Shown: one piece after another, positions 25,971 to 49,464 of the stretch
Numbering within the stretch: position 1 is the stretch's first letter
Layout of the letters: each line of letters opens with the position of its first letter
DNA from: an uncultured delta proteobacterium
GTDB taxonomy: Bacteria > Desulfobacterota > BSN033 > UBA1163
Direction of reading: 5' to 3'
Assembly: GCA_963827685.1 (NCBI GenBank)
Contig: CAWHBU010000004.1
Location: forward strand, 608,001 to 672,000
DNA length: 64,000 nt
Position numbers and translations under genes: made by a program
Notes under the pieces: model-generated
Databases searched by the model: none
What the model saw: the letters and a program-made list of their open reading frames with translations, nothing else
Told to the model about the DNA's origin: nothing

Positions 25971-27075
25971 ATACAAACGTCCTAAATAAAGTGACATAAC
26001 AGTTTATTTATGTTAATATGTGGGCATGAAAAATCCCACATTAATCTTAGAGCATAAAGAGGCCAATAAAGAGCGTTTATTAGCATTAGCCGAACAAATA
26101 TCAGGGGCTTGGATAGGCATAAAGATAGCCGCCTTACTCCTGGTGCTTGAAGGGCAACGTCCGGGATGGATAACCGAGGTGTTAGGGTTGACCCGGATGA
26201 GTTTAAGCCGATGGATTCACGGGGTGAACAAAGACGGCTTAGAGTTCTTAAAATCCAAGCCAAGATCGGGAAGGCCTCCACGGTTAGAGACAAAGATTCA
26301 AAGGGTGCTGGAGGGACACTTAGAGAAGTCTCCGCGGGAATTTGGTTTAAACCGGACTCAATGGGATGGGCCAACGGTTGCGATTCATCTGAAGCGGTCT
26401 TTCGGGATAAACCTGAAGGTGCGGCAAGCCCAACGCTGGATGCATCATTTGGGTTATCGGTTAAAGAGAGCGAGTTATTCTTATCTTCAAGCACAAAGCC
26501 AAGAAGCCCGAAAGTTCCAGCGGGCTTTAAAAAAAACTTGAGTCCCTGGGGCCAAAAGAGACAATTGTATTCCAGGATGAGACAGGCTTTACGATGCACC
26601 CCAGGCTTAGCCGGGGCTGGGCGAAAAAAGGAAAGCGTCTTAAGATTCCCACGACCAGCCAGCATCGTATCCGTTTGAATATCTCTGGGTGGGTCAATCC
26701 TTTGCTTGGACGCTATGGCATGATTCAGACAAAACGGGGGGATAGAGAAGGGTTTCTCAAACTTTTGCGCCACCTCTATGGAAGGTTTAAAGAATATACC
26801 ATTTGGCTTTATGTCGACAGGGCCCGCTGGCACAGAGGCGATCCCATCGAACAATTTCTTAAAAAACATCCGAGGCTCCATATCGAATATTTACCCCCGT
26901 ATCAACCGGGATTAAACGTGCAAGAACGGATTTGGCGCAGTGTTCGCTATGAATCCACCACCAACCGTTGGTTTGAAAACCTTGATAATCTTTGGTCTGT
27001 CGTTTGTAAAACAACTCGCTCATGGTCTTGTCAAAAGATTCGTAGGCTATGTAACATTACTTAATGCGTTTGTAT
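25971..27075 (+). mobile_element. IS630-family insertion sequence
   Basis: Imperfect ~29-bp TIRs starting ATACAAACG, flanked by TA (25969-70, 27076-77). Confidence 0.9.
26026..27064 (+). CDS. IS630 transposase, HTH ORF and DDE ORF joined by a frameshift at A8 (26529-26536)
   Basis: HTH with GRPPRL; FQDETGF, DRARWH and LPPYQPGLNVQERIW in the +1 frame. Confidence 0.88.
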
Positions 27076-28041: not shown

Positions 28042-28580
28042 AAAAAATACCTGTTGAATACCGCCCAGCTCTGCTGGGCGGATGAAAACAGGTTCGCGAA
28101 GCGATAAGACATGGTATAAGTACTGCATGAGCTCGATAAAAAGAACAAGCCATGCGGTCTACGATTTGAAATATCATATGGTATGGGTTCCCAAATATCG
28201 GAAGATGATATTGGGAGGTGAGTTGGCAAAAAGGCTTAAGATGAGTTTTGAGCAAATATCGGAGAGGTACGAGTTTGAGATAGATACGATGGAGGTAAAG
28301 GATGATCATGTTCATTTATTTTTGTCTGCCCCTCCTCGGTATTGTCCGGCAGAGATTGTGCAGATCATAAAGAGTATCTCGGCGAAAATGGTGTTCAAGC
28401 AGTTTCCAGAGGTGAAGAAAGAGCTTTGGGGTGGAGAGTTTTGGAGTGATGGGTATTTTGTTCGGTCTGTTGGAGACAAAGTTACCTCTGAAGTCATACG
28501 TCGCTATATAAAGTATCAGCAACAGGAGCAATTAAGTTTTGAATTTTAATGCCCCGCAGCTCTGCTGCGGGGTTCTTTAC
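28042..28580 (+). mobile_element. IS200/IS605-family element, tnpA only, copy 1 (539 bp)
   Basis: Subterminal hairpins CCGCCCAGC-TCT-GCTGGGCGG and CCCCGCAGC-TCT-GCTGCGGGG; inserted after TTTAT; appears identical to copies 2 and 3. Confidence 0.95.
28127..28549 (+). CDS. tnpA: IS200 HUH/Y1 transposase (start 28127, or 28082)
   Basis: YHMVWVPKYR, DHVHLF (HUH), FWSDGYF, YIKYQ. Confidence 0.95.
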   Translation: MSSIKRTSHAVYDLKYHMVWVPKYRKMILGGELAKRLKMSFEQISERYEFEIDTMEVKDDHVHLFLSAPPRYCPAEIVQIIKSISAKMVFKQFPEVKKELWGGEFWSDGYFVRSVGDKVTSEVIRRYIKYQQQEQLSFEF

Positions 28581-30518: not shown

Positions 30519-30788
30519 ATGGAAAAGGAGTTTTACTTGTTAGAGTTCACCGGATCGGAGTGACCGCACTGCCACAAGATGACTCCTCTCGTGGAGAGGT
30601 TAGAGGAAGAAGAAGGGGTAAGCATAGGAAAACTTGAAGTGTGGCATAACGAAGCCAATGCCAAGCTGATGAGGGAATATGACAAGGGCTATTGTGGTGG
30701 CGTCCCATTTTTTTTCAATAAGAAAACGGGAAAGTGGATCTGTGGCTCCGCAGACTACGAACGATTGAAGAAGTGGGCACTGGAATGA
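30519..30788 (+). CDS. Thioredoxin/glutaredoxin-like selenoprotein (UxxC)
   Basis: ATG 30519 after AGGAGG; MEKEFYLLEFTGSE-TGA(30561)-PHC is in frame with the downstream thioredoxin ORF (GGVPFF); hairpin CCTCTC-GTG-GAGAGG at 30585-30599. Confidence 0.85.
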
Positions 30789-34508: not shown

Positions 34509-34537
34509 TTGACAAATGGGCTTTGTAGGATTACAAT
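34509..34537 (+). promoter_or_regulatory. Sigma70 promoter of the hgc operon
   Basis: TTGACA-17 bp-TACAAT. Confidence 0.75.
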
Positions 34538-34593
34538 CAGCACAAACTGACAATTCAGATAAGTCAGCCATTCCTGTAACTGGAGGTGATGAA

Positions 34594-34872
34594 ATGCCCA
34601 AAAGAAATCAAAAGGCCTGCTGCTCCCCTGCGGGAATGGGGAGCAATTATTGTAAAGTCGAGTCGATCATCAGTGTCGACGAACGAGGACAGATGGTGCT
34701 TCCTAAAGAATTGAGGGATAGGGCAAATATTCGCCCGGGGGATAAGCTGGCCATTGTCAGCTGGGATAAAGGCGGAGAGGTTTGCTGCATCTATTTGATC
34801 AAAGCAGAATATCTGGCAGAGCGTGTGAAGGATTTTCTGGGTCCCATGATGAAAGGCATCGCCACAACCTGA
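34594..34872 (+). CDS. AbrB/MazE-fold, Cys-rich HgcAB-associated protein (HgcC-like)
   Basis: VDERGQMVLPKELR..IRPGDKL AbrB motif, two CC pairs, directly upstream of hgcA; SD GGAGGTG. Confidence 0.8.
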   Translation: MPKRNQKACCSPAGMGSNYCKVESIISVDERGQMVLPKELRDRANIRPGDKLAIVSWDKGGEVCCIYLIKAEYLAERVKDFLGPMMKGIATT

Positions 34873-35005
34873 TATCAGACGCAAATTCTGGAAATGGCAA
34901 TCAAGCCATATCGCAATATAGGAGAGTTCTCATGGATAAGGCAAGAGGTTACCCGTCAGCGCAACAAAGTAATCACCCTACAAACACAAGCTGTTGACCA
35001 TCAAG

Positions 35006-35031
35006 TGGAGGGGCTCAGTTGAGCCTACCCA
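35006..35031 (+). promoter_or_regulatory. Putative bacterial SECIS for hgcA UGA 34995-34997
   Basis: Stem GGCTC/GAGCC with loop AGTT beginning 20 nt after the UGA; extended by TGG/CCA. Confidence 0.6.
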
Positions 35032-35670
35032 GTTTAAAGCAACCCTTTGTCCTCGGTTTGATCCAAACCCCGGTTGGCCCAGTGCCTCAAGTCTCGTCAT
35101 CCCTTGGTTGGACAGACCATTTAGGAACTTTTAAGACTCGTTGGGGGATAGGCCGCATGCATTATACCATCGAGCCCGGTCTTTATGCCTTGGGAAAACC
35201 CGATGAGCAATCGCCGGTCTTGGTGACAGCCAATTATAAGATGAGCTTTGACAAGCTCCGTGAGGCATTGCCGGGCCGGAACATGTGGATACTGGTCCTG
35301 GATACGGGAGGCATCAATGTCTGGTGCGCTTCGGGGAAGGGGACCTTCGGGACGATGGAACTTGTTGGACGAATCAAATCGAGTGGCCTAAGCCAGATCG
35401 TTTCGCATCGGGAGTTGATTTTGCCTCAGTTGTCGGGCCCGGGAATTGCGGCTCATCATGTCAAGAAATTATCCGGCTTCAAAGTGATTTACGGCCCCAT
35501 CCGGGCGACCGATCTTCCAACTTTCTTGGAAGCCGGACTTAAAGCGACACTGGAGATGAGGCTCAAGACCTTTACGACCTTGGAGCGCATGGTACTCATC
35601 CCGATGGAACTTGTCTTAGCCCTAAAGGCGGGTATGATTGTCATTCCTATCATGCTTCTCTTGGCTTTAT

Positions 35671-36209
35671 AAAAAATACCTGTTGAATACCGCCCAGCTC
35701 TGCTGGGCGGATGAAAACAGGTTCGCGAAGCGATAAGACATGGTATAAGTACTGCATGAGCTCGATAAAAAGAACAAGCCATGCGGTCTACGATTTGAAA
35801 TATCATATGGTATGGGTTCCCAAATATCGGAAGATGATATTGGGAGGTGAGTTGGCAAAAAGGCTTAAGATGAGTTTTGAGCAAATATCGGAGAGGTACG
35901 AGTTTGAGATAGATACGATGGAGGTAAAGGATGATCATGTTCATTTATTTTTGTCTGCCCCTCCTCGGTATTGTCCGGCAGAGATTGTGCAGATCATAAA
36001 GAGTATCTCGGCGAAAATGGTGTTCAAGCAGTTTCCAGAGGTGAAGAAAGAGCTTTGGGGTGGAGAGTTTTGGAGTGATGGGTATTTTGTTCGGTCTGTT
36101 GGAGACAAAGTTACCTCTGAAGTCATACGTCGCTATATAAAGTATCAGCAACAGGAGCAATTAAGTTTTGAATTTTAATGCCCCGCAGCTCTGCTGCGGG
36201 GTTCTTTAC
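35671..36209 (+). mobile_element. tnpA: IS200 element copy 2, inside hgcA (tnpA 35756-36178)
   Basis: Same 539-bp sequence as copy 1, inserted after TTTAT. Confidence 0.95.
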
Positions 36210-36631
36210 TTGGGAAGTCAGGAGAAGGTTGGACGAATGCCTTCAGCCATGGCCTTTTCTCTATTCTGGCCATCCTGACTGCCATTCTGGTTGGTGCAGT
36301 TCTAACACCTTTGTTGCTGCCATGGCTGCCGGGCAGGGCCTTTTCAGTCAAGGGCTTCAGTATAGGGGGTCTCACCGTTGCAGCCCTCTTGGTTTTTCGC
36401 TGGAATGATTGGGTCACGTGGGGGGGACGTCTCGAAATATTGGCTTGGCTCTTTTTTATACCTGCGGCCTCGGCTTATCTGGCAATGAATTTCACGGGAG
36501 CTTCAACATTTACCTCCCTCTCCGGGGTCAGAAAAGAAATGCGGTGGGCTTTGCCGCTTGAAATTGGTGCTGGAATTGTAGGTCTCGGTCTTTGGCTCGG
36601 ATCAAACTTCCTCGCATAAGGAGTTCAAACG

Positions 36632-36979
36632 ATGAATCCATTGATTTATCTTAGAGATGTTGTCACATTAAAGCTTGATCCCCAAAAATGCATGGGGTGC
36701 GGAACGTGTCTTTTGGTATGTCCCCATGCCGTCCTCAGCCTGACCAATGGCAAAATTGAGATCGCAAATCGAGACGCCTGCATGGAATGTGGCGCCTGCG
36801 CCCGAAATTGTCCTGCCGAGGCTCTGAATGTGCGCTCAGGGGTGGGTTGTGCAACGGCCGTGATCAATGGCATGCTGGGGCGAAAGAAATCTTCCTGCTG
36901 CTGCACGATCGATTCCGAAGAAAAATTAAGTAGTCCTTCCGAATGTTCTCCCGGTGCTAACCGTACAGACTGCTGTTAG
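36632..36979 (+). CDS. hgcB: Mercury methylation ferredoxin HgcB
   Basis: Two CxxCxxCxxxCP motifs, CMECGAC and GVGCA signatures, C-terminal Cys clusters; immediately after hgcA. Confidence 0.93.
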   Translation: MNPLIYLRDVVTLKLDPQKCMGCGTCLLVCPHAVLSLTNGKIEIANRDACMECGACARNCPAEALNVRSGVGCATAVINGMLGRKKSSCCCTIDSEEKLSSPSECSPGANRTDCC

Positions 36980-48925: not shown

Positions 48926-49464
48926 AAAAAATACCTGTTGAATACCGCCCAGCTCTGCTGGGCGGATGAAAACAGGTTCGCGAAGCGATAAGACATGGTA
49001 TAAGTACTGCATGAGCTCGATAAAAAGAACAAGCCATGCGGTCTACGATTTGAAATATCATATGGTATGGGTTCCCAAATATCGGAAGATGATATTGGGA
49101 GGTGAGTTGGCAAAAAGGCTTAAGATGAGTTTTGAGCAAATATCGGAGAGGTACGAGTTTGAGATAGATACGATGGAGGTAAAGGATGATCATGTTCATT
49201 TATTTTTGTCTGCCCCTCCTCGGTATTGTCCGGCAGAGATTGTGCAGATCATAAAGAGTATCTCGGCGAAAATGGTGTTCAAGCAGTTTCCAGAGGTGAA
49301 GAAAGAGCTTTGGGGTGGAGAGTTTTGGAGTGATGGGTATTTTGTTCGGTCTGTTGGAGACAAAGTTACCTCTGAAGTCATACGTCGCTATATAAAGTAT
49401 CAGCAACAGGAGCAATTAAGTTTTGAATTTTAATGCCCCGCAGCTCTGCTGCGGGGTTCTTTAC
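48926..49464 (+). mobile_element. tnpA: IS200 element copy 3 (tnpA 49011-49433)
   Basis: Same 539-bp sequence, inserted after TTTAT in an intergenic repeat. Confidence 0.95.

Follow-up and report, generated by a model that had tools for sequence, protein, structure and literature searches.

The window, by which we mean the whole stretch of 64,000 nucleotides analysed, carries the genes hgcC, hgcA and hgcB on its plus strand, hgcA being divided into two pieces by an insertion sequence of the IS200/IS605 family. At the 5′ end of hgcA, a TGA codon directly following a Cys codon lies in frame with the corrinoid domain, and a hairpin of the SECIS type follows it at a short distance. The coordinates of these features, and of a second ORF with an in-frame TGA, are collected in Table 1.

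Table 1. Features of the hgc locus and a second selenoprotein candidate, in coordinates of the window
Feature	Position	Strand	Basis or remark
Thioredoxin-like ORF, 89 codons, in-frame TGA at codon 15	30519-30788	+	S-E-U-P-H-C, UxxC redox motif
hgcC (HgcAB-associated AbrB-type protein)	34516-34872	+	NF040962, 126 bits (cut-off 70), residues 46-113 of a 118-aa ORF
Shine-Dalgarno-like AGGAGAG	34920-34926	+	Sequence; 5 nt before ATG 34932
hgcA 5′ piece (29-residue N-terminal arm, corrinoid domain, first membrane helix)	34932-35670	+	Translation with TGA as U; NF040863
TGT-TGA, predicted codons of a Cys-Sec (CU) dipeptide	34992-34997	+	Sequence, translation
Predicted SECIS-type hairpin	35003-35034	+	Fold; comparison
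IS200/IS605-family insertion sequence, 539 bp, inside hgcA	35671-36209	+	Y1_Tnp, NF033573, contig joints
tnpA	35711-36178	+	Pfam Y1_Tnp (PF01797), 143.1 bits; NF033573, 158.1 bits
hgcA 3′ piece (membrane helices 2-5)	36210-36619	+	NF040863 model 199-324, 123 bits; different frame
hgcB ferredoxin	36632-36979	+	NF040864, 120.2 bits (cut-off 99)

Translation from ATG 34932 gave 21 codons (MDKARGYPSAQQSNHPTNTSC), the last of them TGT (34992-34994), followed by TGA (34995-34997); with TGA read as U, the frame continued as PSSGGAQLSLP and then as HgcA, which places the CU dipeptide at residues 21-22 of the 29-residue arm. The start given to hgcA in a mechanical list of ORFs, TTG 35019, shares this frame with ATG 34932. 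When the 5′ piece alone was compared with the NCBIfam profile NF040863 (HgcA_corrinoid), a score of 313.6 bits was obtained against a cut-off of 275 (314.3 bits in the search of the genome), positions 1-195 of the profile being aligned to residues 51-245. The cap-helix motif with the cobalt-ligand Cys (G-I-N-V-W-C-A-[AS]) was present in the translation as GINVWCASGKGTFG, and hgcB was located directly downstream of hgcA, which is the gene context of the HgcA family. A previous reading made from the letters alone (the sequence-only reading) had described the Shine-Dalgarno sequence, the ATG, the TGA, the frame into HgcA and the hairpin, and the sequence and its translation returned each of them at the coordinates given there.

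The same reading had named selA, selB, selC and selD as the genes by which its proposal should be checked. All were found in the same genome: selB with 357 bits (cut-off 242.25), selA with 629.9 bits (cut-off 267.9), selD with 384.1 bits (cut-off 125), and a single tRNA-SeC (anticodon tca), which ARAGORN placed a few kb away from selA, at C3:1143951-1144044. The selD gene (L013, G000:C6:489003-489929, minus strand) contains one in-frame TGA of its own, which makes the SelD of this genome a predicted selenoprotein as well. As for the second selenoprotein proposed at 30519, the thioredoxin-like ORF with its U-P-H-C motif is a plausible candidate; with C substituted for U it scored 23.2 bits with Pfam Thioredoxin, slightly below the cut-off of 23.5, and the 55 nt downstream of its TGA gave an unremarkable fold (z -0.18).

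For comparison, 40 related genomes were searched with NF040863, and 13 loci of the same family were obtained (L017-L028 and L030). An in-frame TGA directly before the conserved core was found in 13/13 of these loci and was preceded by Cys in 12, mostly in the context S-C-U-P or S-C-U-A, the exception being L018 with S-T-U-V. An ATG exactly 63 nt 5′ of the TGA, as in the window, was present in 10 of the 13. Two protein homologues (P0023 and P0058) are encoded by continuous ORFs and have S-C-C-P in place of the S-C-U-P of the window; orthologues with Cys in place of Sec are the classical signature of a true selenoprotein. Both an in-frame TGY-TGA and a Cys-Cys form, which the sequence-only reading had proposed to seek by alignment upstream of hgcA homologues, were thus encountered. 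The majority of database entries for close protein homologues are 353-356 aa long, with a start at the equivalent of the TTG. In two further homologues, Cys-Ser was observed at the position of CU (T-S-C-S-P in P0031 and V-C-S-P in L071), which would be one base change away from TGA.

The 20 arm codons upstream of CU showed 414, 392 and 461 pairwise differences at codon positions 1, 2 and 3, respectively, and gave no clear coding signal. Since there is almost no codon-position bias, the arm looks weakly constrained apart from its length, its start and the S-C-U-P core, and the codon-position test is uninformative for this arm, the linker being fast-evolving. In loci outside the family but within the same class or phylum (L029, L031-L038), all nine N-termini were short and contained neither Cys nor TGA, from which the CU arm appears to be lineage-specific and dispensable. 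Within the genus itself, hgcA above the family cut-off was observed in 8 of 14 genomes (G001-G014; completeness 74-100%), so that the gene is patchily distributed there, in agreement with repeated loss.

A wider sample, limited to one genome per species and collected by the cap-helix pattern G-I-N-V-W-C-A-[AS], provided 80 hgcA loci, mostly from Syntrophales-like genomes together with other Thermodesulfobacteriota MAGs, as judged by title. After removal of two loci lacking upstream DNA and one masked locus, the 30 codons before the core were scored in the remaining 77. The arm had the form CU in 28 loci, U without a preceding C in 4, CC in 26, CxC in 8 and a single Cys in 6, and contained no Cys in 5. 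The contexts among the 28 CU loci were GCUP (8), SCUP (7), PCUG (3) and others (10); because SCUP recurs in 7 of the 28, the form in the window can be regarded as an ordinary variant. In L018, L050, L067, L073 and L116, TGA and hairpin were kept although the preceding Cys was absent, the contexts being S-T-U-V, S-S-U-A, L-T-U-A and S-T-U-G, and in L116 G-G-U-C, where a Cys follows the Sec; a vicinal Cys before Sec therefore does not seem to be obligatory.

The hairpin consists of a core stem-loop, GGCUC-AGUU-GAGCC, at 35012-35025 and a weaker lower stem formed by 35003-35008 and 35029-35034, with 14 nt between the UGA and the core stem and 19 nt between the UGA and the loop. Folding of the single sequence (51 nt from the UGA) gave -14.2 kcal/mol with a z-score of -1.15, and 27 of 200 shuffled sequences were equally stable. 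Because of this weak z-score, the fold in the window is by itself not beyond chance, and the case for the hairpin rests on comparison. All 14 family sequences retained the 5-bp stem; one pair, in L027, had changed in a compensatory manner from U-A to C-G, and two other changes were of the wobble type. A fixed test, demanding a 5-bp stem that contains at least three G-C pairs, closes a loop of 4 nt and begins 7-21 nt after the codon, detected the hairpin in 24 of the 28 CU loci and 3 of the 4 other U loci (27/32 Sec-form loci), versus 0 of the 26 CC loci. The spacer was 14 nt in 23 of the 27 hairpins, and the second position of the loop was G in all 27; the five U-form loci failing the test had closely similar hairpins, in which the stem was of 4 bp or the loop of 5-6 nt. 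Over the 48 nt following the codon, the median fold energy was -14.85 kcal/mol for the CU loci and -8.95 kcal/mol for the CC loci, and a Mann-Whitney comparison of the 32 U forms with the CC forms gave p = 5.5e-6, a value in which independence is overstated, the sequences being related. An Rfam scan of 34850-35150 with E up to 10 returned no match, and the hairpin thus corresponds to no curated family.

Comparison accordingly upheld the SECIS-like hairpin with G in its loop that had been pointed out after the UGA in the sequence-only reading, and supports the view that it is specific to Sec-form hgcA and acts as a predicted SECIS. Bacterial SECIS elements of the fdhF type are short hairpins in the coding sequence just 3′ of the UGA, with GU in a small apical loop. 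The hgcA hairpin resembles that of E. coli fdhF in its position and shortness and in the G followed by U in the apical loop (AGUU in the window, GGUC in L020); it differs in its 14-nt spacer, its shorter stem and its lack of an Rfam match, and its recognition by SelB is predicted.

An N-terminal Cys-Sec arm of HgcA is already known, having been published in 2022-2023, and the mention of such a report in the sequence-only reading was right. Haft and Gwadz (bioRxiv 10.1101/2022.07.06.499078) described most HgcA proteins as selenoproteins with an N-terminal CU, the extension being found in 20/20 hgcA genes examined, including those of ND132 and Geobacter sulfurreducens, with extended lengths of 363-400 aa, Sec machinery in all species and a pentapeptide PCUGP perfectly conserved in the 20 genes; according to these authors, reference data were given to the NCBI annotation pipeline, which was said to have been updated. 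The J Bacteriol version of 2023 is cited in a 2026 review (PMC13188914, consulted as an excerpt), which lists HgcA (NF040863) with the motif CU, and in the excerpted text of PMC11588087 the selenoprotein form of HgcA is mentioned merely as a suggestion. The window gene has the arrangement described by Haft and Gwadz, namely a single in-frame UGA that directly follows a Cys codon, ahead of the corrinoid domain and upstream of the formerly annotated start, with a start codon farther upstream and Sec machinery in the genome, and its length of 382 aa after removal of the element falls within their range. It differs from their genes in that the window has S-C-U-P-S, not PCUGP, and in that the gene is interrupted. 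Since PCUG occurs in just 3 of the 28 CU loci, PCUGP is likely to be one of several lineage variants and not defining for the wider family. This lineage variation may already be visible in the alignment of Figure S7 of Haft and Gwadz.

Taken together, the presence of selA, selB, selD and tRNA-Sec, the conservation of the TGA, the Cys-Cys homologues and the hairpin of the Sec-form genes make the assignment of UGA 34995 to selenocysteine in the HgcA arm well supported and almost certainly right.

The hgcA frame is terminated after residue 245 by a stop at 35670-35672, and in the whole-genome NF040863 search the HgcA model was split at 198|199, positions 1-198 being matched before the element and 199-324 after it. 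This interruption, 640 bases further on, was absent from the sequence-only reading. A continuous gene for the corrinoid domain and a five-helix membrane domain was not found at this locus, but the assignment to the HgcA family itself stands. The 539-bp element occurs in 18 copies in the genome, of which 17 are 100% identical and one is 99.8% identical, and every copy has TTTAT to its left and T to its right; this near identity at a uniform target suggests that the element expanded very recently. Two further copies lie within the window, at 28042-28580 and 48926-49464. Both ends of the element form 9-bp subterminal hairpins (z -6.66 and -3.83).

In elements of the IS608 and ISDra2 type, a Y1 transposase acts on subterminal hairpins, and insertion takes place 3′ of a fixed pentanucleotide without duplication of the target. 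The element in hgcA is like them in its Y1 (HUH) TnpA, its subterminal hairpins, its lack of terminal inverted repeats and its insertion 3′ of a fixed pentanucleotide (TTTAT in 18/18 copies) with no target duplication, and is unlike them in containing tnpA only, with no tnpB. Insertion sequences of the IS200/IS605 family are touched on in PMC6006769 (excerpt). In the excerpted part of a large survey (PMC7438021), no hgcA was reported close to insertion sequences or transposases, and an insertion sequence inside hgcA is not mentioned among the titles and abstracts listed for hgcA together with transposase.

The boundaries of the element, 35671 and 36209, were fixed by contigs from public metagenome runs, one of X2 (1080 nt long, with 3 differences) and one of X3, both of which join 35670 directly to 36210. 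At this empty site, 539 nt are skipped and no letters are duplicated. An uninterrupted hgcA allele therefore exists in nature, and hgcA without the element would have 382 codons, as does L030, the closest intact relative. In the AlphaFold2 model of L030, the interruption comes where the first membrane helix (H216-248) ends. The membrane domain of HgcA has been reported as required for methylation (excerpt of PMC11588087, citing earlier mutagenesis), and no second hgcA above the cut-off was found in the genome with NF040863. Since the gene is split, its membrane domain is reportedly required and no second copy was detected, the strain probably does not methylate mercury, although it would count as hgcA-positive in a profile search. 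The proposal that HgcA is a selenoprotein consequently stands for the CU arm, on the strength of the Sec machinery, the conservation and the hairpin, whereas a working selenoenzyme is improbable in this strain, the gene being split. The only contigs of the RNA run X19 were IS-like, with no hgcA contig among them, and the run has no bearing on expression. A terminator-like site at 36180-36202 on the plus strand consists of the right-end hairpin of the element and a T-rich run, and could keep read-through from reaching the 3′ piece of hgcA and hgcB, and may also lower the expression of hgcB.

Several other explanations of the locus were weighed. According to the one that survives best, which we nevertheless regard as unlikely, two products are made: with selenium, HgcA carries the CU arm, and without selenium, translation stops at the UGA and restarts at a UUG or GUG codon in the SECIS loop to give an arm-less enzyme, so that the locus would be a selenium-dependent isoform switch. 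In the window and five relatives, the 5′ side of the hairpin indeed contains an SD-like motif and its loop a start-type codon, and lineages with an arm-less HgcA exist; however, start codon and SD are not conserved among the Sec-form genes, a start-type codon within 33 nt after the TGA being present in 20/32 and an SD-like motif in 6/32, and the UUG or GUG may merely be a Leu or Val codon that takes part in the hairpin.

Members of the IS200/IS605 family are capable of precise excision, and an extended form of the same idea would make hgcA a two-layer switch, in which selenium supply chooses between CU-armed and arm-less HgcA, by way of the start-type codon in the SECIS loop and a ribosome-binding motif in its stem, and an IS200/IS605 element inserted at TTTAT|T in the membrane domain turns methylation off, and possibly on again, in natural populations. 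This combination is a little harder still to credit; if it were true, marker-gene surveys based on hgcA would over-count active methylators.

It is very improbable that the interruption is an assembly artefact caused by a misplaced repeat and that the strain has an intact hgcA. The 18 near-identical copies of the element, the uninterrupted junctions in the X2 and X3 contigs and an estimated contamination of the assembly of 7.98% are in its favour. On the other hand, unique hgcA sequence lies on both sides of the element within one 882-kb contig, and the insertion is located exactly at TTTAT|T, as for the other 17 copies. Moreover, contigs of run X1 that are identical to the window cross from hgcA into the element at either end, reaching 25 and 29 letters into it, and no joint skipping the element was seen in X1; these extensions are short of the 31-letter threshold that counts as bridging, and the run is possibly the source sample itself.

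Least credible is the view that the TGA is an ordinary stop and that hgcA starts at TTG 35019, the 21-codon ORF being a leader peptide or a chance ORF. It draws on the GGAGG located 8 nt upstream of TTG 35019, from which an arm-less protein could be started in the window, on the ATG, GTG or TTG that 13 of 14 family sequences offer in the 33 nt following the TGA, and on the start at the TTG equivalent in most database entries of close homologues (353 or 356 aa). It is opposed by the family member L020, in which no ATG, GTG or TTG follows the TGA within 45 nt, and by 10 of the 32 wider Sec-form loci, where such an in-frame codon is likewise lacking over this distance, so that the conserved LPxLxQPFV stretch of these ten needs read-through of the UGA. 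An SD-like motif was found in just 6/14 family sequences and in 6/32 of the wider Sec-form loci, the Cys-Cys homologues run as one continuous ORF across the same place, the hairpin is restricted to TGA forms, and 10 of the 13 relatives retain the ATG 63 nt upstream. A frameshift or a second genetic code behind the TGA was rejected, as there is only one TGA, stops elsewhere are normal and no part of the Sec machinery is missing.

We therefore consider it highly probable that the locus encodes the known selenoprotein form of HgcA, with the CU arm as an accessory handle for soft metals, that the gene has been cut by a recently inserted IS200/IS605 element, and that the strain is probably no methylator. 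According to this reading, translation would start at ATG 34932, and SelB with tRNA-Sec would read UGA 34995 (codon 22) as Sec, under the guidance of the hairpin that lies 14 nt downstream. The product would present a Cys-Sec pair on a flexible arm ahead of the corrinoid domain. In the AlphaFold2 model of L030 (382 aa, U read as C; mean pLDDT 73.6), residues 1-30 had values below 50 and the ordered domain began at approximately residue 36, which suggests that the arm is disordered or flexible. The arm would most likely capture Hg(II), the Cys-Sec pair chelating the ion and handing it to or from the corrinoid site, as is thought for the C-terminal CC of HgcB. The sequence-only reading had proposed that CU could bind Hg(II) or methyl-Hg and thereby tie methylation to the supply of selenium, a function that is likewise putative. 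In the window, the element cutting hgcA after the first membrane helix would leave a truncated protein only.

MerA and NmerA likewise possess metal-handling cysteine pairs typical of mercury proteins. The HgcA arm resembles these pairs and the CC of HgcB in being a vicinal pair of soft ligands on a flexible protein end; unlike them, it would have selenium as one ligand, and binding or transfer by HgcA is hypothetical. The C-terminal cysteines of HgcB have been reported as needed for methylation (PMC11588087, excerpt). The same excerpt states that mercury is methylated in E. coli lysates containing recombinant ND132 HgcAB with a His-tag at the N-terminus, the start codon used for cloning not being stated. 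Because whole lineages are without the arm and the His-tagged ND132 HgcAB is active in E. coli lysates, the role of the arm is likely to be accessory, that is, helpful and not essential.

The Cys-Sec arm connects the formation of methylmercury with selenium biology, a connection already in print, and the additions made here are modest. The motif around the Sec differs by lineage, SCUP and GCUP being commoner than PCUGP in this sample. The hairpin separates Sec-form from Cys-Cys-form genes and could serve annotators as a simple test. Furthermore, an hgcA above the family cut-off may still be broken by an IS while an intact allele is present in other metagenome samples, which is relevant to studies inferring methylation potential from hgcA counts.

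Among the neighbouring genes, the true start of hgcC is probably later in its ORF. Two Cys-Cys pairs were observed in hgcC (K-A-C-C-S-P and E-V-C-C-I-Y), and a promoter-like site with 11/12 matches was located at 34509-34537. Some HgcB proteins have been reported to contain Sec at a position where the HgcB of the window has Cys, in G-V-G-C. The protein ends in CC, and its Cys-rich tail (S-S-C-C-C ... D-C-C) extends past the 93-position family model. Elsewhere in the window, a 156-aa ORF at 26594-27064 on the plus strand matched only the DDE_3 endonuclease domain (72.5 bits) and is probably a fragment of another transposase.
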